Part shown: piece after piece, positions 35,930 to 57,234 of the stretch
How positions within the stretch are numbered: position 1 is the first letter of the stretch
Layout: each line of letters opens with the position of its first letter
Source of the DNA: Chitinophagaceae bacterium
Lineage (GTDB): Bacteria > Bacteroidota > Bacteroidia > Cytophagales > JASGCU01
Direction: 5' to 3'
Assembly (NCBI GenBank): GCA_030053935.1
Contig: JASGCU010000002.1
Location: 9,107-73,106, forward strand
DNA length: 64,000 nt
Notes under the pieces: generated by a model
Database searches by the model: none
The model's input: only the letters and a program-made list of their open reading frames with translations
What the model was told of the DNA's origin: nothing
Translations under genes and position numbers: made by a program

Positions 35930-35962
35930 AACAAATAATTTATTTTTGAAATTATATTATTT

Positions 35963-38900: not shown

Positions 38901-39841
38901 TTATAAATAATAGAATATTCACTCAAGTTTATATCTTCTCTATGAACGATAATATAAGAAACTTTTGATTCTAATATTATAGATATGTCTTCTTCCTTTA
39001 GTATATAATCTCGTTCTAATTTAATCTGGTTCCTTTCAATAGAGATTACTTCGCCTGTATCTTCATCAATAAAGTCTTCCATATAAGTGTGTATAACTCG
39101 TGCTGCAAGCTTTCTTCCTATATTTTTCATCAAATCATCTCTCGTTGCAGGAACATCTTCAGAAAGTCCAAAGATATCTAATATACTTTTATCCGTACTA
39201 TATCCTATAGCACGTAATAGAGTAGTTATTGGAAACTTTTTTTTTCTGTCAATATAAGCATACATTATATTATTGGCATCTGTAGCAAATTCTATCCATG
39301 CTCCTGTAAAAGGTATAACACGAGCAGAATATAATTTTGTTCCATTCGTATGTCTGCTTTGAGCAAAAAACACACCAGGAGATCTGTGTAATTGTGAAAC
39401 TATGACTCGTTCAGCTCCGTTAATAACAAAAGATCCTCTCTGAGTCATGTAAGGTATGTTTCCTAAAAAAATCTCTTGTTCATAAATAGTAGGTTCTTTA
39501 TTGTCAAAAGAATAAGAGGTTACTTTGAACTTGACTTTGAAAGGAACAGAGTAGGTCAGCCCTCTATCTATGCATTCCTCTATTGAATATCTAGGAATGT
39601 CAATAGAATAATCTACAAATTCTATAGTAAAATTTTTCCTTGCATCAGAAATGGGAAATATATCACAAAAAAGCTGGTATAAACTTTGCTTTTTTTTATC
39701 TTGATTTGCTATGTCTAATTGAATGAATTCTTGAAACGAGGAAGTTTGAATATCTAAAAAATTAGGGTAGTTAAATTCTGTTTCTTTCGGAATCTTTACT
39801 TTAGCAAAATTTATTCTTTTAGTGTTATGTAATGTATTCAA
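35963..39841 (-). CDS. rpoB: DNA-directed RNA polymerase subunit beta
   Basis: 1292 aa. [31 protein letters not shown] motifs. The start codon appears to be TTG, so the exact start is uncertain. Confidence 0.97.
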
Positions 39842-39960
39842 AACAATGTTATTTTAGAAGTATGAGTACTAATTTCTCTATAATTTTATAGTGAAAATAA
39901 AATATATTTCACAAACGCAATAATTCAATAAATATTTTTGACCTTTCACAACATTTAGTT

Positions 39961-39987
39961 AAAAGATCCGTATTATTCGGATCTTTT
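39961..39987 (-). terminator. intrinsic terminator/attenuator hairpin between rplL and rpoB
   Basis: Perfect 10-bp stem aaaagatccg / cggatctttt with a 7-nt loop. On the minus strand a GATCCG..CGGATC core is followed by TTTT, 19 nt after the rplL stop. Confidence 0.7.
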
Positions 39988-40005
39988 AAACTAAAAAACA
40001 CATTA

Positions 40006-40389
40006 TTATTTTACTTCTACCTCAGCTCCTAATTCTTCTAATTTGGTTTTTAGTGCAGCGGCTTCGTCTTTTTGTACTCCTTCCTTTAAAGGTTTAGGAG
40101 CATTATCAACAAGATCTTTTGCTTCTTTTAATCCTAATCCTGTCAGATCTTTTACTAGTTTTATAACACCTAATTTATTCGCTCCCGCTGCTTTTAAAAT
40201 CACATCAAAAGATGTTTTTTCAGGTACTGCTGTCGCTGTATTACCACCAGGTGCAATGCCTCCTGCCATTACAACTGGAGATGTAGCTGCCTCTATGCCA
40301 TATTCGTTTTTAAGAATTTTTGCTAATTCATTTACTTCTTTTACTGATAAATTTACTAATTGTTCAGCTATTGCTTTTAAATCTGTCAT
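40006..40389 (-). CDS. rplL: 50S ribosomal protein L7/L12
   Basis: 127 aa. Ala/Gly hinge, ...[12 protein letters not shown]...[12 protein letters not shown]. Confidence 0.97.
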
Positions 40390-40426
40390 TTTAATTATTA
40401 CTTATATTATTATTATTTAAAAATTA

Positions 40427-40954
40427 TTATTTTTCTGACAGTGTTTTTAAAACTCCTGTCAATGTATTATTACCACTCTGAATAGTGGTAACTAACTTTT
40501 TCATCGGGGATTGTAAGAGTGTAACAATATCTCCTACTAACTCATTCTTAGATTTAATATTAAGGAGTATTTCTAAATTTTCTTCCCCAATAAAAAAATC
40601 TGATTCTATGGAAGCAGCCTTAAACGTAGGTCTTTTATTTTTATCTTTCTGTTGAAATTCTTTTATCACTTTTGCAGGTATTTTTGCAGAACTATTGCAA
40701 AAAATAATCCCAGAAAATCCTTTTAACACTTTTTTATTCCATGAAGAATAATCTACATTTTGTGTATCTAATGCTTTTTTTATAATAGTATTTTTAAATA
40801 CTTTATATTCAAGACCATTTTGAAAACAAATACGTCTAAAAGAATTTATTTCTGATACTGTAAATCCTGAAGTATCTGTTACATAAAAATAAGGTGTTTT
40901 TGCAAATTTTTCTTTGAGTTCTTCTATCAAAACTCCTTTTTTTTCTCTGTTCAT
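40427..40954 (-). CDS. rplJ: 50S ribosomal protein L10
   Basis: 175 aa, in the position between rplA and rplL; N-terminus MNREKKGVLIEELKEKF is L10-like. Confidence 0.9.
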   Translation of the reverse strand: MNREKKGVLIEELKEKFAKTPYFYVTDTSGFTVSEINSFRRICFQNGLEYKVFKNTIIKKALDTQNVDYSSWNKKVLKGFSGIIFCNSSAKIPAKVIKEFQQKDKNKRPTFKAASIESDFFIGEENLEILLNIKSKNELVGDIVTLLQSPMKKLVTTIQSGNNTLTGVLKTLSEK

Positions 40955-40959
40955 GTTTA

Positions 40960-41658
40960 TTATATTCCTATTATTGTGTTTTTATCTATTTGAATACTCT
41001 TACTCATAGTACTAGATAAGTAAATACTTTTAAAATATATACCTTTAGAAGAAGATGGTTTTAATCGGGCTACTGTTTGAAGTATTTCTAATGCATTTTC
41101 TTTAATTTTTTCAGATTCAAAGGATGTTTTCCCGATACTTGTATGAATTATTCCTGCTTTATCTATTTTAAAATCTATTTTTCCTGCTTTTACTTCTTTT
41201 ACTGCTTTTCCTACCTCTAATGTTACCGTTCCTGATTTAGGATTTGGCATCAGTCCCCTTGGTCCTAGTATTTTTCCAAGTTTTCCTACTTTTGCCATAA
41301 TAATAGGCATAGTGATTATAACATCTATATCTACCCATCCCCCTTCTATTTTCTTTATATATTCTTCTAATCCTACATAGTCGGCACCAGATTCCCTCGC
41401 TTCATCTTCTTTTTCTGGAGTACATAAAACTAATACTCTTACAGATTTTCCTATTCCATGCGGTAAAGAAACAACTCCTCTTACCATTTGGTCAGATTTT
41501 TTAGGATCCACACCTAATCTCATATCTATATCCACAGAAGAATCAAATTTTGTAAATGTTATTTCTTTTACTATTTTGCAAGCTTCTTCAAGAGAATATA
41601 TTTTATCGGCATCGTATTTTAGAATAGATGTTTTTTGGTTTTTTGTTAATTTTTTCAT
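40960..41658 (-). CDS. rplA: 50S ribosomal protein L1
   Basis: 232 aa. ...[16 protein letters not shown]... L1 signature. Confidence 0.96.
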
Positions 41659-41676
41659 TATTTTTAAAGTATCTAT

Positions 41677-42117
41677 TTAATTCCAAGGTGCTTTTCCGGT
41701 GACAGTAATTCCCATGCTTCTAGCTGTTCCACTTATCATTTTCATAGCAGATTTAAGAGTAAAAGCATTGAGATCGGGCATTTTTATTTCTGCTATTTTT
41801 TGCACTTGATCCCATGTAATGTTTCCTACTTTATTACGGTTTGGTTGCGCAGAACCTAATTTTGATTTACTTGCTTCTAGTATCAGCAGTGGTGCTGGTG
41901 GTGTTTTTACAACAAAATCAAAGGTTTTATCGTTATAAACAGTTATAAGAACTGGTATTAAACTCCCTTTCTTATCCTGAGTACGAGCATTAAATTGTTT
42001 ACAAAACTCCATTATATTTAATCCCTTGCTCCCTAAGGCAGGCCCTACGGGTGGAGATGGGTTTGCTTCTCCTCCTTTTACTTGTAATTTTATATATCCT
42101 GTTATTTCTTTTGCCAT
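41677..42117 (-). CDS. rplK: 50S ribosomal protein L11
   Basis: 146 aa. ...[26 protein letters not shown]... Confidence 0.97.
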
Positions 42118-42131
42118 ATAATTCTTTGGTT

Positions 42132-42683
42132 TTATGATTCTTTTTCTGCTTGTGAGTAATTTAATTCTACTAATGTATTACGTCCAAAAATTTTTACAGT
42201 AACATTTATTTTTTTTCTTTCTTCAAATACTTCTTGCACGGTTGCAAAAAAACCGGTAAAAGGTCCATCTATCACTTTCACAGATTGGCCAGGAGAAAAT
42301 GAGATATTTTGTTTTACCAGGGCTTCCTCTGCTTCTTCCATTTTTCCTAGTATACGATTAATTTCATTTTGTCTTAGTGGAGTTGGATTTTTATCTGTTT
42401 TATCTTTAGATCCAACAAATCCTAAAACGCCAGGTGTATAATTTACTGTATGCAACACCTCGCCATGACTTACATCTGCAAATATAAATATATAACCTCC
42501 AAATATTTTTTTTTCTCTTACATATCTTTTTCCTTTTCTTTCCTCATATACTTTTTCAACTGGTATAAGTATTTCGGAAATATAATTTTGCAATTTTTGT
42601 CTACTAATTTCTGTTTCCAAAAATGTTTTTATTTTCTTTTCTTGCCCTGTAATTGCTTTTATTGCATACCAATTTAACTGCAT
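42132..42683 (-). CDS. nusG: transcription termination/antitermination factor NusG
   Basis: 183 aa. NGN domain [13 protein letters not shown] and [24 protein letters not shown]. Confidence 0.95.
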
Positions 42684-42700
42684 CGTAATTATAGTTTACA

Positions 42701-42892
42701 TTAAACGGTGTTATAAATAAATTGTAAAATTTGTTCAAAAACTCTATCTACAATACCTACTAATATTGCAAAAATTATAGCAGATATAAGTATCATAGTA
42801 GCGTTTTTTCGTAAAGAAATATAACTAGGCCAAGTAACTTTTGTCATCATTTCTTCGTATGAAGATATAACAAAAAATTTTATTTTATTCAT
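42701..42892 (-). CDS. secE: preprotein translocase subunit SecE
   Basis: 63 aa from the Met at 42892 (MNKIKFF...EMMTKVTWPS...single TM). The longer ORF-track version (to 42976) overlaps tRNA-Trp and is rejected. Confidence 0.85.
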   Translation of the reverse strand: MNKIKFFVISSYEEMMTKVTWPSYISLRKNATMILISAIIFAILVGIVDRVFEQILQFIYNTV

Positions 42893-42926
42893 ATTTTTTT
42901 TAGTAACCAATATATTGAAAGAGAAG

Positions 42927-42999
42927 CACGGGAGGAGGGACTCGAACCCCCAACCTACGGTTTTGGAGACCGGCACTCTACCAATTGAGCTACGCCCGT
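42927..42999 (-). tRNA. tRNA-Trp (anticodon CCA)
   Basis: Hand-folded cloverleaf: acceptor ACGGGCG/CTCCCGT (one C-U mismatch at 6:67), D arm GCTC-AATTGGTA-GAGT, anticodon loop CTCCAAA, T arm GGGGG-TTCGAGT-CCCTC. Canonical tuf-tRNATrp-secE position. Confidence 0.85.
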
Positions 43000-43033
43000 A
43001 TCTCAGATTTTATACCGAGTATATATCTCTTTT

Positions 43034-44221
43034 TTAGTCAAGTATTTCCGTTACTTGTCCTGCACCTACTGTCCTTCCTCCTTCTCGTATTGCAAACCTA
43101 AGACCTACTTCTAATGCTATTTTACTGAGTAGTTTTACGTCTATAGTAAGATTGTCTCCTGGCATAACCATTTCTCTTCCACTTGGAAGTGTTATTTCTC
43201 CTGTAACGTCTGTGGTTCTAAAATAAAATTGAGGTCTATATTTGTTAAAAAATGGAGTATGTCGTCCTCCTTCTTCTTTAGACAAAACGTATACTTCTGC
43301 TTTAAAATGAGCATGTGGTTTTACGGATCCTGGCTTACATATAATCATACCGCGGCGTATTTGAGTTTTTTCAATACCACGTAATAATAATCCTACATTA
43401 TCGCCTGCTTCACCTCTATCTAATATCTTACGAAACATTTCTACCCCAGTAACGGTAGATTTTAATCCTTCTGCTCCCATTCCTACTATTTCTACTGTTT
43501 CCCCACTATTAATAACTCCTCTTTCTATTCTTCCTGTTCCTACTGTTCCACGACCTGTTATAGAGAACACGTCTTCCACAGGAAGTAAAAAATCTTTTTC
43601 AGTAGAACGAACTGGTTGTGGAATATAAGAATCTACTTGTGCCATGAGTTCTTCTATTTTAGAAACCCAATTTGCATCTCCATTCAGTCCTCCTAAAGCA
43701 GAGCCGCGAATAACAGGTATTTTATCCCCGGGGAACTTATAAAATGTAAGAAGATCTCTTATTTCCATTTCTACGAGGTCCAATAATTCGGGGTCATCTA
43801 CTAAATCTACTTTATTCATAAAGACAACTATTGCTGGTACTCCTACCTGTCTTGCAAGAAGAATATGTTCCCTTGTTTGAGGCATAGGTCCGTCTGTTGC
43901 TGCTACTACTAATATTGCTCCGTCCATTTGTGCAGCTCCAGTAACCATATTTTTCACATAATCAGCGTGACCAGGACAGTCAACGTGTGCATAGTGTCTA
44001 TTATTTGTTTGATATTCTACGTGAGCAGTATTGATGGTAATACCTCTTTCTTTTTCTTCGGGTGCATTATCTATAGAGGAAAATTCTCTTACTTCTGCTA
44101 ATCCTTTTTTTGCTAATACTTTAGTTATAGCGGCGGTAAGGGTAGTTTTACCGTGATCTACGTGTCCTATTGTTCCGATGTTGACATGCGGTTTATTTCG
44201 GTTAAAATTTTCTTTAGCCAT
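43034..44221 (-). CDS. tuf: elongation factor Tu
   Basis: 395 aa. [24 protein letters not shown] motifs. Confidence 0.99.
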
Positions 44222-44322
44222 TATTTGATATTTTGATATATGTTAAAATATGAATTGAGTTATAATAATTTAAAAATATATTTATATATTTATAGTAAAA
44301 AAAATACAAATATTTAAATATG

Positions 44323-44394
<72 letters not shown>

Positions 44395-44441
44395 ATTCAT
44401 CTTACAAAAAGATATAAAAATGCTCTTTTATTAGTATTAAG

Positions 44442-44514
44442 AGCGGACAACGAGGTTCGAACCCGCGACCTGCAGCTTGGAAGGCTGCCGCTCTACCATC
44501 TGAGCTATGTCCGC
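44442..44514 (-). tRNA. tRNA-Gly (anticodon TCC)
   Basis: Hand fold: acceptor GCGGACA/TGTCCGC, anticodon stem GCAGC/GCTGC with loop CTTCCAA, T loop TTCGAAC. Confidence 0.88.
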
Positions 44515-46274: not shown

Positions 46275-46310
46275 TATTATTACTTTTTTTAAGTGTGATT
46301 ATAATATAAA

Positions 46311-46687
46311 TATAGGTCTATAAGCCGGATTCTGTTCTCTTGAGAGTTTCTATCATTTATCTGGGTTATTTGTTGCCAAACAACTCTATCGACCTACCCA
46401 ATCCGAATTTATTTGAAACAAATAAACAAGCGAGCAGCTTTTTTTCGGATCCTATTTGGTCTTTCAACTCGTAAGGTTTATCATGCTTTTGATATCACTA
46501 TCAAAACGGTAAGCTCTTACCTCACCTTTTCACCCTTATCTTAAAAAGACGGTTTTCTTTTCTGTGATACTGTCTGTTATTTTGTTTTGATGACAAAATA
46601 CCTTCCCGTTAGGAAGTACGATGCTCTGTGTTGTCCGGACTTTCCTCTTCATTTATGAAGCGATAGAACGACCTATATTTAATATTA
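46311..46687 (-). ncRNA. rnpB: RNase P RNA, bacterial type A
   Basis: The minus strand contains GAGGAAAGTCCGGAC (P4 5' strand), GATAAGGGTGAAAAGGTGAGGTAAGAGCTTACC (P10-P12 region) and ACAGAATCCGGCTTATAG (P4 3' strand). Terminal P1 pairing tataggtc/gacctata. Ends approximate. Confidence 0.92.
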
Positions 46688-47007
46688 TATGTGAATAATG
46701 TTAGTATCTATTGAGTGTATGGAAGAAAACTATGTTTTTTTTAGTTTAAGTTTCTTGTGGTGGTATGGTGGTGTTTTTAAAATTTACTTTATTATAAGAG
46801 GGTATTTATATTACAAATATATTTTGAAAACGAAAATAATTGGGGTAAAAATTATTTCATTGAGATGTAAGTATTTATATTTTATAAGTAAATCAATTAT
46901 TATGGTTGGTATAAATTAAGAATTGCTTGTGTTTTAAATGAAAGTATACTTTACTGATGGATTCAAGAAATATTTCTCAATATTTTATTTTATATCTATT
47001 AAAAAAA

Positions 47008-47073
47008 TCAATCAGAATCAAAATATTTATGAAAAAATTGTGTAAAAAAGATCCGTTTTTAGGAACCCCTTTC
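47008..47073. repeat. family-C short element, copy 2
   Basis: atcaatcagaatcaaaatatttatgaaaaaattgtgtaaaaaagatccgtttttaggaacccctttc. Lies 17 bp beyond the 3' end of the 47091-48131 gene; about 75% identical to copy 1 by eye. Confidence 0.45.
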
Positions 47074-47090
47074 TGTAGTTTGTAAGCGTT

Positions 47091-48131
47091 TTATTTAATT
47101 TTTTTTATGCTATAAATAGATGCTACGGCTCCAAATGAGAGAGTTGCTAAGTTCACTCTAAAGGTATCATCTACATAAGATCCTTTTTGTATCAGAGTTT
47201 GATTATTGTATCTCTCACTAGGGTTCATAAAATCAGTAGTCATATGTTGGTATTGAAATTCGGTAAACAGATGCCATTGTTTATTGATGGGTATTTTTAT
47301 CCCTATTCCTGCAAAAATGCTGATATTTATAGATTTTCTGAGGGTGGCTTCTTGTTTCAGTAAGTTTTCTCCGAATATATTTTGGATTTTTCCTCCGCCT
47401 GCTCTGTTTTGTAGGTCTGCTGTTGATGCGAATAGGTAATTAAGGTTTGCTCCGATGTTTATATAGGGTTGTATTTTTTTAAGACTTATAGTATATTCTA
47501 AAAATAATGGGGTTTGGAGTATATAATCTGTTTCTGTGAGGTCTGTTTTGTAATCTATAGGTATTGATATGATAAATTGTTGCCACATAAATCCTATTCC
47601 TGTTCCTATGGTGATGTTTTTTAGAATATCTTTTTTTATGAAAAGATTTATTCCTGCTCTGAAAGAAGGTTGAATTTGTTTTTGAATTTCGTTGGTGTTG
47701 TGTAATCCGAAAGAAGCGTATGAAATGATATGTGGATAGTTTCCTATGGCTTTCATTCCTACCTTGAGTATTGGTTTGTATCTAAAAGTTTCTTTTAAAA
47801 AAAAGAGTTCTTTTTTATCTATATCGGGATTAAATTCGTGTTCTTTATCCCTTTGGAGGATTTTTTTCATCCATTTGTCTGCTTCTGCATATTTGTCTTC
47901 ATATAAAAGAGACATTATTACGATTTTAGTGGCATTTATAAGTTCTTCTTTTGTTAATACATTTTTAGAATCGTTGAGGCAGTTTTCGAGTTTTTTAGGT
48001 ATTTCAGATATATGTCCAGTGATATAAAGTTTTTCTGCGTCTTCTATTGTTTGAATGCAAGATATTTGTTCTTGTGCAAATGCATTATAAATAAAATGAA
48101 GGGATAGAAATGTTATTGCTAATGTTCTCAT
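47091..48131 (-). CDS. outer-membrane beta-barrel protein (OMP_b-brl_2-like) with N-terminal helical/TPR-like domain
   Basis: 346 aa. Signal peptide MRTLAITFLSLHFIYNAFA-QEQ, an about 110-aa helical region, then alternating-hydrophobicity strands (ITIGTGIGFMWQQF, IQPYINIGANLNYLFA, ISIFAGIGIKIP, WHLFTEFQYQHM). Confidence 0.65.
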   Translation of the reverse strand: MRTLAITFLSLHFIYNAFAQEQISCIQTIEDAEKLYITGHISEIPKKLENCLNDSKNVLTKEELINATKIVIMSLLYEDKYAEADKWMKKILQRDKEHEFNPDIDKKELFFLKETFRYKPILKVGMKAIGNYPHIISYASFGLHNTNEIQKQIQPSFRAGINLFIKKDILKNITIGTGIGFMWQQFIISIPIDYKTDLTETDYILQTPLFLEYTISLKKIQPYINIGANLNYLFASTADLQNRAGGGKIQNIFGENLLKQEATLRKSINISIFAGIGIKIPINKQWHLFTEFQYQHMTTDFMNPSERYNNQTLIQKGSYVDDTFRVNLATLSFGAVASIYSIKKIK

Positions 48132-48140
48132 ATAGTTTAT

Positions 48141-51100
48141 TTATTGTTTATTAGGACATGTTTTTTCGTATAAAATATTTTCTCCTACATATTGTTTCCA
48201 TTCATTTTGGGTGAGGTTTCTGGATTTTGCACAGAGTTTATCTGCTATAAAATCAGGTTCTATCGGCCATACTTTCATAAAATCATCGTTACTTCCTGTG
48301 ATAATTTGTTTTGTTTTTTCATGAAAAATTCCATCGAATACCCATTCTTCTGATTCTTTTAATACTATTGGTGGGTCAGATATGTATTGCAACACCCATA
48401 GTTTTGTAGTATGATCTAATCCAGTGCTGATTAATAACGAGTTGTCAGAATTAAATTCTATATTGCTTACTCTGCTGGAGTGAGCATTTATATCAGAAAA
48501 TAATTTATTTGTTTCCATATCCCATATATATATTTTTCCGGATTTATCACCAAAAGCGATATATTTTTTATTTTTACTCATTGATACGCATGTAATAGCG
48601 TTGTTATTCACAGTATTTTTTGCGATAGGGATTGTGTATTTATAACGGAGGGTGTTTTTTTCTGTTATATCCCATATCATAATTTTTCCATCTGCAGAGC
48701 CGCTTATTAACATTTTATCATCACTGCTCATATCTATAACTTTTACATCTTCATGTTCTTTTAGTATTTCTATTGGTGGGATTGTAGAGTTTTCATAGTT
48801 GTATATGCGAATATATTGATCTTCTCCGATAGATATAAATTGTGGTTTATTTTTGAAGAATACTATATCATTAATATTTCCGTGGTGTTCTTCTAGTATG
48901 GTTGATTTTTCTGTTTTTAGGTTTACGAGTATTATATTTTCTTTAGTTCCTACGGCGAGGTATTTATCATCTTTACTAATAGCGAGAAATTTATTTTCGA
49001 ATTTATTTTCTAAAATTACTTTATAGCTTCTTTTTGGGTCTTGTATATTCCATTTTATTATTTTTCCATCACCTCCTGTGGAATAAACAGAATTTCCTTC
49101 ATTTGTTGCGACTATACTGTATACTCCAGATCCTCTAGAATGCCCTTTCCATCTTATAATATCTATTCCTTCGGTTGTTTGCCAAGCGTTAAATAATCCC
49201 ATGTATACATCGGGGTTATATTTTTTATAAGAATATTTGCGGTCGTAGAGAAATGCTTGTTTTGCAATAGCAGATTTTAGTTCGGGGTCTCTTATTTGTT
49301 CTACTCTCACGGCAAGAGATTGTGCGAGAGATTGGAATCTTAGTTTTTCGGCAATTTCTCTTTCTCGGCGGGCTTCGTTTGCACTTTGTTCTGCTTGTAA
49401 TTGTTGTATTCGGGCTTCTTCTTCTTTTTGTTGAGCAATGAGTGCGGATTTTTGGGCTTCTTCTTCTTTTTGTTGGGCAATTTTACTTTGCCGAGTAGCT
49501 TCTTCTTTTTGTTCTTGTGCTATTTTCGTTTGTTTTTCGGCATATAAGCGAGCTTCTTGTGCTTTTTTAGTTTCTTCTTCTGCTTTTTTTTTGGATATTT
49601 CTGCAGCTTTTGCAAAGCTAATTGCTTTTTCAGATTCTATCACTGCTTTTTTTCTTTGGATTAGTGCTTCTTTTGTAGCTTCTGTAGATATTTTTAACTG
49701 ATCTCTGGAATAGATAACTAATCCTACTAAAACTATTGCAACAGCAGCGCATATTATAGATGTTATTCTAAAAGCTCTAATTTTATTTTTTTGTTTTATG
49801 AGTTTTATTCTTTGTTCTTCTTCAAATTCTCTTTGTGAGGTTTCTAAAAACACCATAACTCTTTCGTATGCTTTATGGTATCTTCGTCCCCAAAAGGGGG
49901 TAGGATTTATTTCTTCTTTCCAGTTGAGAGCGGCTTGTAGATGAGGCATTTTCCAGAGGTCTCCTTCTCCTGTTACAAATTTTTCAGCGGCATCGGATAA
50001 TCGCAAATACATATCTACGGATTTTGATTCTTCTTCTAACCATACTTTTAGTCTTGTCCATATTCTCATAATACTTTCATGTGAAATATCTATAAGAGTT
50101 TCTCCATCAATAGGGTAGTTATGGGGAGGCATGAGAAGAGATCTGGATGGGTCTCTGAATAGATTGATGACGTTTATAACTTTTATTGGGGTAGTATTAG
50201 CTATTTTTGCGATGGTTTTTAGTTTTGTTGGTCTTCTAATCCCTTTATTTTCTGCGTTTTTTTCGGTGAGGGTTTTGAATAGTACTTCACATATTTTTTT
50301 TTCTTCTTGAGTAAGAGAATCGTATGCCTCATTGGCATGTTCGGATAGGGCTTCTTTTACGGTACCAATTGCTATGTATTCAGATATGTCTATTGGATCA
50401 TTTGTATGTCCTTTAGTATCATTCCAATATTGCCATGTGCGCATCAGGGCATGTTGGAGGACAGGGAGTTGGTCGGGGTTATCGCCGATATCATTCAAAA
50501 GTTGTTGTGTGAGCCGAGGAGTTATAGATCCTCCGACGACTAAAATAGGACCTTCTATGGCTAGTTTTTTTTGTTCTCGATTCATTTGTGGTATAAGATA
50601 ATGGCTTTCGTTTATTTTCTGTGTGAGATTTGGGAAAAAAGCACATTCACCTATAAAATCGGAACGCATTGTTAATGCAATATAAATAGATTCATTTTGA
50701 ATTTCTAATGCTTCGGTGATGAGGGATATAAAGTTATTCGCTTCTTCTTGTGAATAGGCTGAATTATCAGTAGTTCTGTATCTAAAAATTTCTTCAAACT
50801 GATCTATAAGTATAAAATAGTTTGTGTTTTTATCTTTTTTTAAATAATTAATAGCATCTACAAGTCCTAATGAGCTATTTCTTAATATGGAAGAGATGAC
50901 TGTTTGTTTTGTCATTTTTTCTTCATTTGATTTTTTTTTATACTCGGGATGTAGAGAGCTGATAAGTGCTTCTGCCATATTTTCTATTGGTGATATACCG
51001 GGTCTAAAAATAATAATATCCCAAGAAGCGCCTGCTTTTGTAACAAATCCTCCGTATAAAATTGGAAGAAGTCCACAATACATAAGAGAAGATTTTCCAC

Positions 51101-51296
51101 TACCGGATGATCCTAGTATTGCTACAAATCTATGTTCTGCTAATCTCATAAGTACTTCATCACTTTGTCCTTCTCTTCCAAAAAATAAATGAGATTCGTT
51201 AATAGTAAATGGTCGTAATCCTGGAAATGGGTTTATTCCCTTTACTTGAATAGATATATTTTCCGTAGTGTACGATGTCGTTTTTGGATTATTCAT
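48141..51296 (-). CDS. nSTAND-type P-loop NTPase - single TM helix - coiled coil - WD40 repeat protein
   Basis: 1051 aa. N-terminus NPFPGLRPFTINESHLFFGREGQSDEVLMRLAEHRFVAILGSSGSGKSSLMYCGLLP (Walker A) and YFILIDQFEEIF (Walker B), as in the novel-STAND-1 family. Hydrophobic ITSIICAAVAIVLVGLVIY (DNA 49712-49768). Lys/Glu/Gln coiled coil. At least 5 WD40 units (e.g. LISGSADGKIMIWDI, IAFGDKSGKIYIWDM, STGLDHTTKLWVL). Confidence 0.8.
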   Translation of the reverse strand: MNNPKTTSYTTENISIQVKGINPFPGLRPFTINESHLFFGREGQSDEVLMRLAEHRFVAILGSSGSGKSSLMYCGLLPILYGGFVTKAGASWDIIIFRPGISPIENMAEALISSLHPEYKKKSNEEKMTKQTVISSILRNSSLGLVDAINYLKKDKNTNYFILIDQFEEIFRYRTTDNSAYSQEEANNFISLITEALEIQNESIYIALTMRSDFIGECAFFPNLTQKINESHYLIPQMNREQKKLAIEGPILVVGGSITPRLTQQLLNDIGDNPDQLPVLQHALMRTWQYWNDTKGHTNDPIDISEYIAIGTVKEALSEHANEAYDSLTQEEKKICEVLFKTLTEKNAENKGIRRPTKLKTIAKIANTTPIKVINVINLFRDPSRSLLMPPHNYPIDGETLIDISHESIMRIWTRLKVWLEEESKSVDMYLRLSDAAEKFVTGEGDLWKMPHLQAALNWKEEINPTPFWGRRYHKAYERVMVFLETSQREFEEEQRIKLIKQKNKIRAFRITSIICAAVAIVLVGLVIYSRDQLKISTEATKEALIQRKKAVIESEKAISFAKAAEISKKKAEEETKKAQEARLYAEKQTKIAQEQKEEATRQSKIAQQKEEEAQKSALIAQQKEEEARIQQLQAEQSANEARREREIAEKLRFQSLAQSLAVRVEQIRDPELKSAIAKQAFLYDRKYSYKKYNPDVYMGLFNAWQTTEGIDIIRWKGHSRGSGVYSIVATNEGNSVYSTGGDGKIIKWNIQDPKRSYKVILENKFENKFLAISKDDKYLAVGTKENIILVNLKTEKSTILEEHHGNINDIVFFKNKPQFISIGEDQYIRIYNYENSTIPPIEILKEHEDVKVIDMSSDDKMLISGSADGKIMIWDITEKNTLRYKYTIPIAKNTVNNNAITCVSMSKNKKYIAFGDKSGKIYIWDMETNKLFSDINAHSSRVSNIEFNSDNSLLISTGLDHTTKLWVLQYISDPPIVLKESEEWVFDGIFHEKTKQIITGSNDDFMKVWPIEPDFIADKLCAKSRNLTQNEWKQYVGENILYEKTCPNKQ

Positions 51297-51306
51297 AATT
51301 TTGTGT

Positions 51307-52794
51307 TTATTTAGATTCTATAGTATCTATAAAAGGAAATAATATACTTTGGTAAAAATCGCTGTTGTTATAAGTAACGTGTAGTAATTTGTTTTCAAAT
51401 TTTTTAGGGTCGCTATTATTGTTAATGTAAATTCCGTGTTTTTTTGTAGAATATGTTCCTTCAAAAGCTGGGGTCCTGTGGATATCTTGTATTTTGGATA
51501 AAACCCATTGTTCGTTTATTTTTCCATATATTATAAAAGAAGCATCACATTGCTGTAGGTATATTCTATGTAGATTTCGCATTTCTATTATATTTGTTTC
51601 AAAATTAGGTGTAATAATATGAAAGTCCATATCTTTAAAAAACTTTACTATAGGAATAGCAATATCGGTATCTATTTTGTCAAAAATAACATAAATACTT
51701 TTTTTTTTTTCTATAGCAGATGTTTGGTGTCTTTTTTTTTTAAATTGCTCACCTAAAAAGTGTATTTCTTTTTTTATTAATTCTTTAAGTTCGGCAATAT
51801 TTCCTTGGAATATATCTAAAAAATAGTCTGTATTAATATCTGTTTTTATTCTATCTATAAAAATATCTTGTTTTTCATAGTGGTTTTGAAAATTTTGTGG
51901 TATCCATATTATTTTTTTTAAAAAGTGATTTGTTTGTTTTCGTATATTTTGAGAATAGGATTCTACTATGTTGTATTGTAGTTCTGCAATAGATATTTTA
52001 TTTTCTTGTGCTTCTGTTCCATAATATTCGCCTATTAGATGGATAGACATAATGCTTTTTTGTATATTCTCTATAATAAATGATTCAATTTCTTCATTTT
52101 TTTGGGGTAAGGGAGTTGTTGGTAAAACATTATACCCATAACGTACCAGTTCTCGTTTTATAGTATCTCTTTGATTTACAAGGTCATGTTCTGTAATTGA
52201 TAAGTATATTGTTTTTTCTTTTTCAAGTTCTTCTTTTTCTGGATATGTATTTTTTGATTGTTGATTTTCGTGTTTTAAATTATGGTAAATATATTTTATA
52301 TGGTTTGCAATATCTAACATGTTCATCCAGTAAGGGTTTTTTGACCCTTTTCCTAAAAAAGGAATAAGTTCTTCTATTTCCCTTGTAATGTTATTTATTA
52401 TATAAAATTCATATTTTTGTGTGTTTTTATACTCATTTAGGAATACATCTTCTTCTATTGGTTTTTTTAATACTTCAATTATTGGATATAATTTTTCAAG
52501 AGAGCGGTTTTCTTCTGTGTGGTATTTTTCTCCAAATTCTTTTATTTTTTGAACAAGAGTATTTTTTTTATTATAACCAGTGGATACAATAATTATACAA
52601 ACAAGTGTGTTTTTCCATGTTTCTTTTTCAATAAAAGCATCAGATACTAGTTTTATTGTAAGTGGGACAGGCATTATTTGTATCAAATAAGATCTTAAAA
52701 TATCCTCAAAACTTTCTATCCATAGAATTTCTTCTTTTTTAGTGTTTCTTTCTGGTTCTGTATAACATATAATTATTTCTGTTCCTATCTGCAT
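51307..52794 (-). CDS. hypothetical protein with three tandem TIR/DUF4062-like modules
   Basis: 495 aa. A thrice-recurring strand-acidic-helix-strand pattern (TEIIICYTEPE.., TIYLSITEHDLVNQRDTIKRELVRYGYNVLP.., SIYVIFDKIDTDIAIPIVKFFKDMDFHIITP..). The fold assignment is inference from pattern only. Confidence 0.45.
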   Translation of the reverse strand: MQIGTEIIICYTEPERNTKKEEILWIESFEDILRSYLIQIMPVPLTIKLVSDAFIEKETWKNTLVCIIIVSTGYNKKNTLVQKIKEFGEKYHTEENRSLEKLYPIIEVLKKPIEEDVFLNEYKNTQKYEFYIINNITREIEELIPFLGKGSKNPYWMNMLDIANHIKYIYHNLKHENQQSKNTYPEKEELEKEKTIYLSITEHDLVNQRDTIKRELVRYGYNVLPTTPLPQKNEEIESFIIENIQKSIMSIHLIGEYYGTEAQENKISIAELQYNIVESYSQNIRKQTNHFLKKIIWIPQNFQNHYEKQDIFIDRIKTDINTDYFLDIFQGNIAELKELIKKEIHFLGEQFKKKRHQTSAIEKKKSIYVIFDKIDTDIAIPIVKFFKDMDFHIITPNFETNIIEMRNLHRIYLQQCDASFIIYGKINEQWVLSKIQDIHRTPAFEGTYSTKKHGIYINNNSDPKKFENKLLHVTYNNSDFYQSILFPFIDTIESK

Positions 52795-52815: not shown

Positions 52816-55800
52816 TTAAATTATTTGAATGGTATTTTCAAATACTTTTAGATGTTTGGTTTCTAAAAATATTGCGGTTACTATCTCTTTATATTTTCCT
52901 GCTGCTTCAAAAAAGTCTACTGCGGGTAGCACTAAAAGTTCTGTTTTTTCTTGTGCAATATATCTATGTTGATTCGCTTGATATTCTAGTATGGTATCCA
53001 ATCCTATAACAGAACCTGAGTATAAAGTATCTAATATTTGTTCGCTATCATTATATAAGAGAACTTCTCCATGTAACAATATGTAAATAAACTCATTTTT
53101 TTTTATGTTTTGATCTACGAGTATTTTTTTTTCGTTTAGTATTACGTATTTAAAAGATTCTATTATATTTGCAAGAATGTCTTCGGGAATATGTTTAAAT
53201 AGGAAAATTTTGCTGATAAATAATATTTTTTCGGATAGGAGCATTATTTTTTTTTTGGTATTTTCTTTCCCATAGGATTGTATTTCTGTACGTGTGTTAT
53301 TTGATAATAAAACTTTATCTAATTCTTTTTTGATGTTTATATCTAATAATTGAGAATAGTATTCGTATGCTCGTTTATCCTTACTATAAATTATATAAGC
53401 GCTTGTCTCGTATATTAATTTGTTTTTATGGAATATACAAGCAGATATACTTTGATTCAGAGGTACGTGTTCCATTTCTTTTAGTGCTAATAGTGCTAAT
53501 ACTTTTATCCAGTGGTTTATATTATTGTATCCTCTGTTTATGATAGATAATAAAATATCTTCATTATTTTTAAAATGTATTATTGGATAATATGTTGATA
53601 ATTTGTCTACTTTATTAGATATATGGTTATCATCAAAAATAATAAATGCTACTTCTTTTAATTCTACGTCTAAAAAAATATCTAGCATTTCTAATGCGAA
53701 AGTTATACCTTCTATATTTTTTTCATTGATATTTTCTTTTACTAAAATAACAGATTGAGTATCGTATAGTAGTATCATGAGATTAAATATTTGCTCATTA
53801 TTTTTCTCATTTTCGTTTTTTAATGATTTTATTATTAATCGTGTTAGATATTCTGTTTCTTCGTGATGACGGAATTTTATAAGGGATTGTATGCAATTGA
53901 GATTCCATACTATTTTAGAAAACAGAGATTGAATTTCTGTTTTTATTCGTTCTCTTTGAATTCCTTTTGCTTTATAGTTTAAAAAGCTTAACCAATAAAA
54001 AACTTCATTTACAATAATTTTATCATGAAAATCTGTTTTTTTCCATAATCTATTAACACAATCTTGGTTTCCAATGCGTCCTAATATTTGAACTATGAGA
54101 AGCATGGTTGCTCTATTTTGTTCTGTTCTATAGAAGGCGGCGTCTATCAAATGAACGACGTTTTCTTGAAGTATAAGGGAAGATTTTGCGAGAAGCGAGT
54201 AAGTATGGGTAGAAAGGTTGTCTATAAGTAAATGGTATAATTCGTTGTAGTGTAGAGATGTGGTGCTGATAATGGCTGCTTTTCTTACATCAGGGTCTGA
54301 ATCTTTTAGGAGATCTATGAGTAAGAGCAAATGCTTATCGTCTTTTTTTATTTGTGAAAGCAATTGAGATAAAAATATTTTGTTTTTTTTGTTAGTTGAT
54401 TGTGTTATTTTTTTTGATTCCGTATAATCTAAAAGGTATGATCTATTATGAGCGAGGTATTCTACTAATTTTTTAGATTGTTCTTTTAATACGGGTATTG
54501 TTTCTTTTTCAGCAAAGATTTTAATTTCTTCTAAATAATGGAAATTATTATACTCAAAGCATTTGGTGTATATAAATTCTCTTATTTTTATATTATCAAA
54601 TTCCAAAAGATATATGAGGTATTTTTTATAGAGAATAACATCTATTTTTTCTAATATATTGAGTCCTATAATAGCATTATTGTAGTGATTTTCTTGTAGG
54701 TTCAGAATAATATTATTCATTATATATGCCTCTATATTATTTTTATTGACATTTTCTATTTCTTGTTTTTGAGACATAAGAGACCGCTTAATAGCTATTT
54801 TATATTCATCATACAAGAGTGATGCTAGGATTAATACGGTTACTAAAAGGATAATATTTATGTAAAAATAATGGATAGTTGTAAAAAAATTTAAGGATCC
54901 TAATCCTAATAGTATAATTCCTAAAATAAAACTCGATGATTCATTTACAACTCCTTCTATTCTGGACTGGATGTTTAACCGTATTTTGGGATTTAATGGG
55001 AGAAAACAATTCTTAAAAGAGAGTGTTTCTATGGCATCCTTTGTAGAGCTGCCAAGAACTCTTCCTATAGCAGTAAATAAGAAGAAAAAAAGATAGTCAC
55101 TATCATTTTCTTGATAACCGTATATATGCCCTGTGATAACAGAACCTATACAAAATATGGATAGGACAAAGGGCATAATCATAAGAGATGTTTTTATTCC
55201 AAAATTGGTTAATATATAATCACTGACTGTTGTTTGAATAATAAATGTCATCCCCACGACAGCGGCATCGTAAAAGGATAGAAAAATGGAAAGGTCTTTT
55301 TCTTCTGTGTATCTGATGTCCATCGCTCCTAAATATGCGTTTTCCATCAGCAATTTTGTAGCGGTGGATGCTATGAGAAAAAAACAAAGAATCTTCAAAT
55401 AATTATTACTGAATAAAAAACTATACGATATTTTATTATTTAATTGGGTGCTCTTGTTTTGTATTTTTGTATCTATATTAAAATCTCGAACCAATATAAT
55501 TGAGGTAATAAAGAGGCATAGTATTCCAACCACAGATACATTTAATAGGTTCTCAGTTCTAATGAGGTCAAAATTTTTGAGAAAAGCAATAACCATAAAA
55601 GTAATAAAAGTAGCAGTGAGCTGCCCCGAATCTATCCCTCCTATAAGTCGCTTCGCCGAACGAATATCAAAAATTCTTCCGAAAGCTCCCCAAAAAACTA
55701 AAAATGTTAATGCTTTTATAGGTGATAAAAGAGTAAACATAATAAAGGTTATCCGAACATCACCCGTTAGTTTCAGAATAATCTGTAGTCCGAATACTAA

Positions 55801-56076
55801 TAAAAAAATAAAAAAAAGTATAGTGATAGTTATGGAAGAATATTTTAAGGTATTTTGATAGTGGACAAAGCATAAAGTTCCCATTACTCCTAATACTCCA
55901 CTCACTATTAAAGCAGGAACTAAATATTCTTTCCCTATACTAAGAAGGAATAGAGTTTCTACTCCTACTTGGTACATGGCAATAAATACGCCCATAAAAA
56001 ATCCCATTAAGAGGAGAAGTATGATTTGGTATTGTTGTTCGGGTCTCCCCCCTAAGAATATGATTATTTTTTTCAT
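52816..56076 (-). CDS. TLC (ATP:ADP antiporter)-like MFS membrane domain fused to HEAT repeats and a C-terminal cNMP-binding-like domain
   Basis: 1086 aa. About 11-12 TM in the first 430 aa, with FWGAFGRIFDIRSAKRLIGGIDSG resembling the TLC FW..an.....AKR motif. HEAT-type LLKDSDPDVRKAAIISTTSL. C-terminal FKHIPEDILANIIESFKYVILNEKKILVDQN...FIYILLHGEVLLY...LYSGSVIGLDTIL...TELLVLPAVDFF reads as a CAP-effector (cNMP) fold with an atypical phosphate-binding cassette. Confidence 0.7.
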   Translation of the reverse strand: MKKIIIFLGGRPEQQYQIILLLLMGFFMGVFIAMYQVGVETLFLLSIGKEYLVPALIVSGVLGVMGTLCFVHYQNTLKYSSITITILFFIFLLVFGLQIILKLTGDVRITFIMFTLLSPIKALTFLVFWGAFGRIFDIRSAKRLIGGIDSGQLTATFITFMVIAFLKNFDLIRTENLLNVSVVGILCLFITSIILVRDFNIDTKIQNKSTQLNNKISYSFLFSNNYLKILCFFLIASTATKLLMENAYLGAMDIRYTEEKDLSIFLSFYDAAVVGMTFIIQTTVSDYILTNFGIKTSLMIMPFVLSIFCIGSVITGHIYGYQENDSDYLFFFLFTAIGRVLGSSTKDAIETLSFKNCFLPLNPKIRLNIQSRIEGVVNESSSFILGIILLGLGSLNFFTTIHYFYINIILLVTVLILASLLYDEYKIAIKRSLMSQKQEIENVNKNNIEAYIMNNIILNLQENHYNNAIIGLNILEKIDVILYKKYLIYLLEFDNIKIREFIYTKCFEYNNFHYLEEIKIFAEKETIPVLKEQSKKLVEYLAHNRSYLLDYTESKKITQSTNKKNKIFLSQLLSQIKKDDKHLLLLIDLLKDSDPDVRKAAIISTTSLHYNELYHLLIDNLSTHTYSLLAKSSLILQENVVHLIDAAFYRTEQNRATMLLIVQILGRIGNQDCVNRLWKKTDFHDKIIVNEVFYWLSFLNYKAKGIQRERIKTEIQSLFSKIVWNLNCIQSLIKFRHHEETEYLTRLIIKSLKNENEKNNEQIFNLMILLYDTQSVILVKENINEKNIEGITFALEMLDIFLDVELKEVAFIIFDDNHISNKVDKLSTYYPIIHFKNNEDILLSIINRGYNNINHWIKVLALLALKEMEHVPLNQSISACIFHKNKLIYETSAYIIYSKDKRAYEYYSQLLDINIKKELDKVLLSNNTRTEIQSYGKENTKKKIMLLSEKILFISKIFLFKHIPEDILANIIESFKYVILNEKKILVDQNIKKNEFIYILLHGEVLLYNDSEQILDTLYSGSVIGLDTILEYQANQHRYIAQEKTELLVLPAVDFFEAAGKYKEIVTAIFLETKHLKVFENTIQII

Positions 56077-56118: not shown

Positions 56119-57234
56119 TTAATCCAATAGAGAATCTACATTTTTATAAGGGGTATGAAATGCCTCTGATACGGCTTTATACACAACATGAGAATGGATA
56201 ATATTAAGTCCTAATTTGAGTTCTTTTTGGTCTTTACATGCTTGTTTCCATCCTTTATTTGCTAAATTAACCGCATAAGGAATGGTAGCATTAGTAAGTG
56301 CAATGGTAGATGTATAAGGAACTGCTCCTGGCATATTAGCAACACAATAATGAATTACTCCACTTACTTCATAAATAGGGTTTTGATGGGTGGTAGGATA
56401 GGTAGTTTCAAAACATCCTCCTTGGTCAACAGCAACATCTACCATAACCGTTCCTTTTTTCATAAACGCAAGCATCTCTTTGGTAATAAGCTTGGGGGCT
56501 TTTGCTCCCGGTATAAGAACAGCTCCTATAATCAGATGATGATCTTTGATAAGTTCTCGGATGTTATATTCATTACTCATAAGGGTCTTTACATTTTTTG
56601 GCATTATATCATCTAAATAACGTAATCTTTCCAAACTTATATCAAGTATAGTAACATCTGCGTTAAAACCTGCTGCCATCTTTGCTGCTTCTGTTCCTAC
56701 CACACCTCCTCCTATGATTAATACTTTTGCGGGTCGTACGCCGGGGACTCCTCCAAGTAAAATTCCCATTCCTCCCATTGGTTTTTCTAAATATTTTGCA
56801 CCTTGTTGGATAGACATTCTCCCCGCTACTTCAGACATTGGTACGAGGAGCGGAAGTGATTTGTCTTCTTTTTCGACTGTTTCGTAGGATAAACATACTG
56901 CTCCATTATCTATCATAGCTTTAGTAAGTTTTTGATTGGATGCAAAATGAAAATATGTAAATAACAGATGGTTTTTTTTTACTAATGTATATTCTTCTTC
57001 AATGGGTTCTTTTACTTTTATAATCATTTCAGATTTTTCATATACGGAATCTATAGTAGGTAATACAGATGCTCCTCCTATCCGATAATCTTCATCACTA
57101 TAACCACTTCCCGAACCTGCTGACTCTTGAACGTACACATCATGTCCTCTTTTTATTAATTCTGCAACACCACTCGGAATAGCGCCTACTCTATTCTCAT
57201 TGTTTTTTATTTCTTTTGGTATTCCTATAATCAT
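56119..57234 (-). CDS. ald: alanine dehydrogenase
   Basis: 371 aa. MIIGIPKEIKNNENRVG..., NAD motif VLIIGGGVVGTEAAKMA, ...VDVAVDQGG... Confidence 0.92.
   Translation of the reverse strand: MIIGIPKEIKNNENRVGAIPSGVAELIKRGHDVYVQESAGSGSGYSDEDYRIGGASVLPTIDSVYEKSEMIIKVKEPIEEEYTLVKKNHLLFTYFHFASNQKLTKAMIDNGAVCLSYETVEKEDKSLPLLVPMSEVAGRMSIQQGAKYLEKPMGGMGILLGGVPGVRPAKVLIIGGGVVGTEAAKMAAGFNADVTILDISLERLRYLDDIMPKNVKTLMSNEYNIRELIKDHHLIIGAVLIPGAKAPKLITKEMLAFMKKGTVMVDVAVDQGGCFETTYPTTHQNPIYEVSGVIHYCVANMPGAVPYTSTIALTNATIPYAVNLANKGWKQACKDQKELKLGLNIIHSHVVYKAVSEAFHTPYKNVDSLLD

Follow-up and report, generated by a model that had tools for sequence, protein, structure and literature searches.

The stretch analysed here, 64,000 nucleotides of the contig JASGCU010000002.1 from a Chitinophagaceae bacterium (the window; positions are counted from its first letter), contains a gene, called TIR3 in the following, for a protein which consists of three members of the TIR superfamily in the order TIR, DUF4062 (also termed NIR) and DUF4062-like, with no other domain. 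Judged from sequence alignments, the catalytic Glu is absent from all three modules. With a probability of about one half, TIR3 would appear to be a non-catalytic scaffold or ligand-binding subunit, which occupies the effector position of an NLR-like system spanning the cell envelope. A scaffold or a nucleotide sensor seems likelier than an enzyme, since none of the modules retains the catalytic residue and since the cassette is always found beside a membrane-anchored NLR-like ATPase.

51307 to 52794, minus strand: TIR3 gene, coding for a three-module TIR-superfamily protein of 495 amino acids, with ATG start

A database entry, [quoted passage not shown], which stems from a Chitinophagaceae metagenome-assembled genome, has the same amino acid sequence; NCBIfam gave no match for the 495-residue protein. 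In a preliminary description of the window, the protein had been taken for three tandem flavodoxin-fold modules, similar to TIR or DUF4062, and nothing else. This view was upheld by Pfam, by hhalign, by comparison of a family profile with the PDB and by AlphaFold2 (AF2) modelling followed by Foldseek searches. The AF2 model, which was built on 37 homologues and reached a mean predicted local distance difference test (pLDDT) score of 80, contained three beta-alpha-beta units with linkers of low confidence between them (amino acids 179-190 and 356-362). The segments named originally, amino acids 5-75, 196-270 and 366-440, proved to be the parts from betaA to betaC of these three separate units. 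Foldseek matches of the whole model included the TIR domains of RRS1, L7, Roq1 and TIR-STING, the matching module being unassigned in the output. The modules are as follows:

52225 to 52794, minus strand: N module (amino acids 1-190), a degenerate TIR_2-type domain, with an inserted beta-hairpin and, at its C-terminal end, a long helix
51715 to 52224, minus strand: middle module (amino acids 191-360), a DUF4062/NIR domain with a C-terminal helical extension
51310 to 51714, minus strand: C module (amino acids 361-495), a divergent flavodoxin-fold domain similar to DUF4062 and to nucleoside 2'-deoxyribosyltransferase (NDT)

The profile and structure searches identified the middle module by Pfam, the N module by the family profile, which matched TIR domains of the PDB, and the C module by hhalign together with Foldseek. 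The middle module had been described as close to the DUF4062 consensus, and this was confirmed by Pfam DUF4062 (PF13271), which matched amino acids 196-275 with an E value of 1.8e-8 (34.9 bits, cut-off 24.7), and by hhalign against bona fide plasmid DUF4062 proteins (Prob 96%, E 3e-9). DUF4062 was matched by Pfam in 36 of the 37 homologues as well. This module is also the most conserved, with a mean pairwise identity of 58%, versus 44-48% for the other two.

The N module of the window protein has the family motifs DxFISYAxxDN and SPxYxxSxWCxxEL in eroded form, and no TIR match was obtained with Pfam for this segment even at E ≤ 10; the gathering score of TIR_2 (PF13676) was not reached. The segment can be aligned over its full length with the homologues, 29 of 37 of which matched TIR_2, and in five of six homologues inspected singly the match was located in N-terminal position. 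Membership of the window copy in the TIR family is therefore a homology transfer only, since this copy itself has no TIR_2 match. A family profile of 111 sequences, with the window protein as its first row, matched the solved plant TIR domains SNC1, RPP1, RUN1 and others with E values of 9e-6 to 1e-3, and the family motif SPxYxxSxWCxxEL was aligned with the TIR motif of these plant domains; when the alignment of 37 sequences was used for a search of PDB sequences, the TIR matches were weak (E 0.18-0.4). The order of secondary structure elements in the AF2 model is compatible with the flavodoxin-like beta-alpha fold of TIR domains.

The C module of the window protein had no Pfam match, and its profile gave nothing significant against PDB sequences; a sub-threshold TIR_2 match was noted at the C module of one homologue (P0020). 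With hhalign and family profiles of 154 sequences, the C module was aligned with the middle module over 125 columns (Prob 94%, E 9e-8). The C module is a divergent duplicate of the middle module. A separate AF2 model of it had a pLDDT of 89 and a predicted template modelling score (pTM) of 0.85. Foldseek matched this model with MilB, NDT, DNPH1 and BcmB, and also with the TIR domains of RRS1, SPARTA, TIR-STING and SARM1, all with template modelling scores of 0.6-0.67 and a probability of 1.0. These matches resemble in kind those reported for DUF4062 itself, namely CMP hydrolase, ribosyltransferases and TIR domains including SPARTA (2026 preprint).

That one pattern recurs three times, as had been claimed, is confirmed. 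Three fold units are present, and the alignment of the middle and C modules is significant, but the N module was not significantly similar to the middle module (E 0.46) or to the C module (E 0.16) in the same hhalign comparison, and no significant repeat signal came from BLASTP between the window segments alone, taken in pairs. The pattern is therefore a repeat at the level of the superfamily and not a recent triplication; three equivalent repeats can be rejected, the modules being different families of the clan.

DUF4062/NIR was recognised as a TIR-like NADase only in 2026, and all characterised members depend on one Glu (three 2026 preprints). In KpSwz, PsAvs2, Vulcan, Vesta and human TEP1, NADase activity or defence was lost when this Glu was replaced by Gln or Ala; catalytic residues reported besides E87 of Eva01 are E97 of KpSwz and E108 of PsAvs2 (2026 preprints). 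The preliminary description had left undecided by eye whether any module keeps such a Glu; according to the alignments none does. The corresponding positions of the window protein could be located for the N and middle modules as follows:

52546 to 52548, minus strand: codon of K83, in the column of the TIR catalytic Glu ("WCxxE", alphaC)
51976 to 51978, minus strand: codon of Q273, aligned with the DUF4062 catalytic Glu (Eva01 E87 in "SYTEMEY"; window "SIAELQY")

The solved DUF4062 chain of KpSwz matched weakly (E 0.045 and 0.27) and no further than betaC, and was unusable for mapping of the Glu; therefore, plasmid-borne DUF4062 proteins were used as references. These were fetched with a consensus probe and were recognised by their annotation and by the numbering F11/E87/Y88/W162; a Staphylococcus aureus plasmid DUF4062 protein has F11, E87, Y88 and W162, which is the Eva01 numbering of the Evangelion preprint. 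Two methods, hhalign and an essentially gap-free MAFFT alignment, placed Q273 at Eva01 E87. By the same mapping, F11, D18 and R23 of Eva01 correspond to Y197, D204 and R209 of the window protein, and E85 and Y88 to E271 and Y274. The middle module thus keeps the other three DUF4062 landmarks examined, the aromatic residue of betaA (Y197) and the Asp and Arg of "DLxxER" (D204, R209).

Among 154 family members, Gln is found in the Q273 column of 144 (94%) and Glu in nine; all of the 79 copies from Cytophagales operons have Gln. The Glu column of the N module contains Glu in 84 of the 154 members (55%); the 79 Cytophagales copies all have another residue there. In the window copy, Ser, Trp and Cys of the N-module motif have been lost as well. 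In the C module the column at the start of alphaC is occupied by H439, and by Leu, Gln or Arg in the family. The middle module also contains H252, which does not vary among the 79 Cytophagales copies and occurs in 151 of the 154 family members. In those branches of the family which keep the Glu of the N-terminal TIR domain, the cassette probably cleaves NAD+; the Caballeronia protein WP_165106803.1 and proteins of the P0034 type are among the Glu-bearing members.

At columns with at least 80% conservation, the window protein deviates from the consensus by D15E, G24L, S77K, R104P, K107E, P119L, D165H, G390D, G443A, G445E and R446G. The same substitutions are kept in an orthologue with 75% identity (P0002), where the N module is 74% and the middle module 72% identical to the window. 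TIR3 is therefore constrained but non-canonical, since conservation is highest in the middle module and the N module is equally conserved in the comparison with this orthologue.

The gene following TIR3 was said to encode an nSTAND NTPase at a distance of 10 bp; the spacing is correct, and the partner belongs to nSTAND1.

48141 to 51296, minus strand: partner gene, 1051 amino acids, with nSTAND1 NTPase (amino acids 23-441, E 5e-92), transmembrane helix and WD40 repeats
49707 to 49784, minus strand: transmembrane helix of the partner (amino acids ~505-530, core 511-529), from hydropathy

A charged, coiled-coil-like region (amino acids ~530-690) and a WD40 propeller (amino acids ~700-1051), which is predicted to be periplasmic, follow the helix. 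Because its N-terminal flank is rich in Lys and Arg, with six positive residues within amino acids 498-510, an orientation with the N-terminus inside and the C-terminus outside is suggested by the positive-inside rule. Exactly one strongly hydrophobic segment, at ~505-535 and between NTPase and WD40, was found in all 73 full-length partners from Cytophagales. A single transmembrane segment is also present in the partners from Caballeronia, P0034 (TPR type), L095, L096 (acidobacterial) and L097; it follows the NTPase and precedes the C-terminal region (WD40, TPR or other), the fused variant (see below) excepted. Since this segment separates the NTPase from the C-terminal region, the sensor of the partner is probably periplasmic. 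At every locus examined the nSTAND1 gene follows the cassette directly or is fused to it (window, L001, L004-L006, L007, L095-L097; fused form P0155). Spacing was checked at three loci and was tight, with 10 bp in the window, whereas in L001 and L006 the genes overlap or share a boundary.

The fusion in P0155, which represents one lineage, joins the cassette to the N-terminus of the nSTAND1 NTPase and thereby places it in the effector position of an NLR. In six other proteins (P0085, P0067, P0088, P0137, P0131, P0052) the whole cassette is fused to Ser/Thr kinase domains, at the N- or C-terminal side, or to a CHAT caspase-like protease, which hints that the cassette is able to serve other effector types. 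In other lineages, additional neighbours are a DUF4231/SLATT-type membrane protein, a weakly SLATT-like protein together with a patatin, and an OMP-like protein (OMP, outer-membrane protein), the last of these from a gene after the NTPase in the acidobacterial locus. The neighbours of SLATT/DUF4231 and patatin type are consistent with an output at the membrane.

TIR3 represents a large family, which appears to be undescribed. Close homologues (n = 38) have lengths of ~475-520 amino acids, with one exception. A HMMER profile search yielded 5,933 representatives of clusters at 50% identity with E ≤ 1e-3, and 1,840 with E ≤ 1e-30; the 150 best-scoring matches were mostly full length. The order of the modules is fixed in the family, and members were found in Bacteroidota, in Acidobacteriota (Vicinamibacterales) and on a Caballeronia plasmid. 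The preliminary description had called a free-standing triple array of this kind unusual, which is right insofar as it is undescribed, but not with respect to frequency, in view of thousands of clustered members. In five longer proteins of 640-690 amino acids (P0029, P0043, P0047, P0094, P0095) two stretches matched the profile, and DUF4062 was matched twice in P0029 and P0043; a version of the cassette with four modules is therefore suggested. Beside P0155, on L092 (4780-7998, plus strand), a protein of 1072 amino acids is encoded with a faint NACHT match, one transmembrane helix and, at the C-terminus, an FGE-sulfatase (C-lectin-type) domain; the protein's N-terminus, "VRIFLSSPGDV", is DUF4062-like, and toxin-antitoxin and transposase genes are nearby.

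TIR3 is the third of five co-directional genes of the window, which are in order of transcription alanine dehydrogenase (AlaDH), a 1086-residue membrane protein, TIR3, nSTAND1-WD40 and OMP. The last four are separated by gaps of 21, 10 and 9 bp. The two further members of this operon are:

52816 to 56076, minus strand: upstream gene, 1086 amino acids, with ~10-12 transmembrane helices, HEAT repeats and, at the C-terminus, a cNMP-binding-like domain
47091 to 48131, minus strand: downstream gene, 346 amino acids, with signal peptide, an N-terminal domain of ~145 residues and an OMP_b-brl_2 outer-membrane beta-barrel

In the upstream gene product, cNMP_binding exceeded the Pfam cut-off, and HEAT_2 reached 28.9 bits with the HEAT segment alone and 25.7 bits with the whole protein (cut-off 27.7). 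Its orthologues match TLC (the ATP/ADP-transporter family), HEAT_2 and cNMP_binding and are named ATP:ADP antiporter or Npt1/Npt2; in two of them, P0217 and P0222, TLC was above the Pfam cut-off. Thus, the protein probably belongs to the class of NTT-HEAT-cNBD fusions, with a divergent transporter domain of TLC/NTT type and a domain for the binding of cyclic nucleotides (cNBD). The order NTT-HEAT-cNBD, TIR3, nSTAND1-TM-WD40 (TM, transmembrane helix), OMP was found in 66 of 80 Cytophagales loci in addition to the window, and is shared by these loci and the Chitinophagaceae genome at a protein identity of ~30%. Isolates of Marinoscillum, Reichenbachiella, Ekhidna and Imperialibacter are among the Cytophagales with this operon. 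In 71 of the 80 Cytophagales loci a gene for a lipoprotein of ~447 amino acids follows the OMP gene; it is missing from the window. Linkage of NTT-HEAT to TIR3 was observed only in operons of the Bacteroidota type (window, the 66 Cytophagales loci and the metagenomic L097). The TIR3 loci examined outside the Bacteroidota have no NTT-HEAT gene, and distant NTT-HEAT loci have neither TIR3 nor nSTAND1. NTT-HEAT proteins elsewhere are neighbours of signalling genes (PilZ, STAS, response regulators).

If TIR3 is a scaffold or ligand-binding subunit, the following sequence of events could be envisaged. A cue from the envelope side would be sensed by the periplasmic WD40 propeller, possibly jointly with the OMP, and NTP-dependent oligomerisation of the cytoplasmic nSTAND1 domain would follow, by which the likewise cytoplasmic TIR3 subunits would be clustered. 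In the lineage of the window, TIR3 would then not cleave NAD+ but serve as an assembly scaffold of TIR type, and it would probably be a pseudoenzyme that binds NAD+ or nucleotides, a natural E-to-Q NIR. The signal could be relayed from TIR3 to the NTT-HEAT-cNBD transporter, with the HEAT repeats as a docking surface, and the outcome would perhaps be an altered nucleotide flux across the inner membrane. That all this belongs to one widespread and undescribed trans-envelope NLR-like system, with a periplasmic WD40 or TPR sensor, often with an OMP, and with a TIR-NIR-NIR cassette whose NIRs are E-to-Q, NAD+-binding pseudo-NADases and which in Bacteroidota gates NTT-HEAT-cNBD, is possible, though less likely than not.

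Several points weigh against TIR3 as a non-catalytic subunit of such a system. A metagenomic family member from an operon with NTT-HEAT-cNBD and OMP (P0055, L097) has Glu at the N-terminal TIR column ("VSGEFIKEAE"), where none of the 79 Cytophagales species representatives has one; the Glu has therefore not been lost without exception in this operon type, and P0055 may be an intermediate state. The residue corresponding to E271, beside the conserved Gln, is Asp or Glu in 108 of 154 family members, and the two residues together could support a non-canonical chemistry. The 1086-residue protein of the window did not match TLC itself, only its orthologues did, and the Arg of the cNBD which presumably binds the phosphate, its position being taken from E. 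coli CRP, is not conserved among the orthologues, so that the ligand may be something other than cAMP or cGMP. That the WD40 propeller is periplasmic is predicted from hydropathy and the positive-inside rule only. A contact of TIR3 with the NTPase or with the HEAT repeats is hypothetical. PADLOC gave no match for TIR3, the transporter or the OMP, and only short and weak matches at the level of the P-loop for nSTAND1; moreover, the locus is flanked by housekeeping genes of equal GC content, and a defence-island context is missing in the window. Because of the absent PADLOC match and these flanks, an immune role is not established in the window; the contexts in other lineages suggest such a role, and the window itself gives no support for it.

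These latter observations would fit with TIR3 as an input or regulator, i.e., a cytoplasmic sensor of NAD+ or nucleotides which gates nSTAND1 or the transporter, in an operon for housekeeping of the envelope or nucleotide homeostasis and not for immunity. The operon order, which is maintained at low protein identity in most Cytophagales loci and in the window genome, would agree with this explanation, as would the GC content shared with the housekeeping surroundings, the result with PADLOC, the occurrence of NTT-HEAT proteins elsewhere among PilZ, STAS and response regulators, and the fact that conservation is highest in the pseudo-catalytic middle module. It appears somewhat doubtful nevertheless, since the fusion to the N-terminus of nSTAND1 is an effector position, and since the cassettes of other lineages resemble conflict systems by their neighbours (toxin-antitoxin genes, transposases, patatin, SLATT-like proteins), by the CHAT and kinase fusions and by the location on a plasmid.

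Alternatively, TIR3 could still be an enzyme which acts as an NADase, or produces a signal derived from NAD, via non-canonical residues (E271, H252 or a site between modules), with the cNBD as reader of the product in the manner of Thoeris or Pycsar. The retention of Y197, D204, R209 and E271 (= Eva01 E85) in the middle module, the near-invariance of H252, the strong constraint on this module, the co-encoded cNBD of ligand-binding type or membrane proteins of SLATT type, and the N-terminal Glu kept by just over half of the family could be quoted in favour. Yet, the exchange of Glu for Gln at the position equivalent to Q273 inactivated every DUF4062 enzyme tested, the window has K83 in an N-terminal motif without Ser, Trp and Cys, the N-terminal Glu is absent from every Cytophagales operon copy, and the phosphate-binding Arg of the cNBD is not conserved; an enzymatic function is thus unlikely. 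It is very improbable that the window copy is a decaying relic whose N module has drifted and whose function is lost, since, in spite of the many altered columns of high conservation, its open reading frame (ORF) is intact, all three modules are modelled confidently by AF2, P0002 shares the substitutions with an N-module identity not below that of the middle module, and the four operon genes are intact and tightly spaced.

A comparison of TIR3, as the proposed scaffold or ligand-binding subunit, with known systems shows likenesses as well as differences. With the DUF4062/NIR effectors (PsAvs2-NIR, KpSwz of Swarozyc, Eva01 of Evangelion, Vulcan, Vesta, human TEP1) it shares a middle module which is DUF4062 by Pfam and by profile-profile comparison, including the aromatic residue of betaA, the Asp and Arg of "DLxxER" and the "S..E.x[YF]" region, and, like many NIR proteins, it is tied genetically to a STAND/NLR-like NTPase with C-terminal repeats. 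Unlike in these effectors, the catalytic Glu is Gln, DUF4062 stands between two other TIR-superfamily modules, TIR3 is on a polypeptide separate from the NTPase, and the NTPase is anchored by a transmembrane helix. Tandem arrays and Gln variants are not mentioned in the passages searched of the 2026 DUF4062 preprints, nor is this operon described in those passages or in the passages searched of the nSTAND1 papers.

In bacterial and plant TIR-NLR or TIR-STAND proteins, too, a TIR-type module in effector position is combined with a STAND NTPase and with a sensor of WD40 or TPR type. The N module of the family, including the "SxWCxxEL" motif, resembles the TIR domains of plant TNL proteins, and the fused form exists in one lineage. 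In contrast to these proteins, the genes are split in the TIR3 system, the cassette has three modules, which in the window lineage have no catalytic Glu, the sensor is predicted to be extracytoplasmic, beyond the transmembrane helix, and a gene for an OMP accompanies the others. In animals, TIR adaptors and scaffolds of the TLR and MyD88 type signal by assembly and not by catalysis. By analogy with these non-enzymatic adaptors, signalling by assembly could be proposed for the Glu-less TIR3 of the window, although, unlike there, the receptor of the system encodes no homotypic TIR partner.

The NTT-HEAT-cNBD fusion class was described in 2017 with no function reported (Major et al. 2017, PMC5381601), and the upstream gene product has the same architecture; in contrast to the TIR3 operon, no link of NTT-HEAT to STAND or TIR genes was reported there. 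Kaur et al. (2020/2021, Aravind group) defined the nSTAND1 clade, of which the partner NTPase is a member, and nucleotide-type effectors that co-occur with SLATT membrane proteins, a theme described by these authors, recur here. Unlike in these nSTAND1-centred conflict systems, an EAD adaptor is not detectable, and a TIR-NIR-NIR cassette, a membrane-anchored nSTAND1 with external WD40 or an NTT-HEAT/OMP operon was not found in the passages searched.

In this family of at least 1,840 clusters at 50% identity, the Glu column is systematically occupied by Gln, and the module concerned is still the most conserved of the STAND-tied TIR-NIR-NIR cassette. TIR3 is therefore a natural test case for non-catalytic functions, i.e., binding or scaffolding, of the TIR superfamily in bacteria. 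With the predicted extracytoplasmic sensor on the partner NTPase, the reach of NLR-like sensing would include the periplasm. The Bacteroidota operon also offers a testable functional partner for the orphan NTT-HEAT-cNBD proteins, which occur in Chlamydia, cyanobacteria and oomycetes as well. If the trans-envelope system is true, the NTT-HEAT fusions would obtain their first functional context, and NIR/TIR folds would have been put to a new use in bacteria, as receptors or scaffolds, in the same way as in animals.

The remaining gene of the co-directional group precedes the operon:

56119 to 57234, minus strand: AlaDH gene, 42 bp upstream of the gene for the 1086-residue protein

AlaDH is probably not a member of the system and was rejected as such, since the Cytophagales loci carry other genes at this place (histone-deacetylase-like, QueA). 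A scan for promoters and terminators was uninformative, with fewer promoter-like sites than in shuffled sequence. The GC content is 28-34% throughout the window, and the TIR3 operon is no outlier; a recent horizontal acquisition of the operon was rejected on this basis. Directly downstream, a housekeeping block (31622-44514) contains ORFs with the sizes of RNA polymerase beta and beta' and of ribosomal proteins; its identified members are EF-Tu (43034-44221), tRNA-Trp, tRNA-Thr and tRNA-Gly only. As this block adjoins, the operon is embedded in the core genome, with a uniform GC content of ~30%. Past the OMP gene there is a gap of 816 bp (46275-47090), the sole content of which is an ORF of 73 amino acids on the opposite strand.

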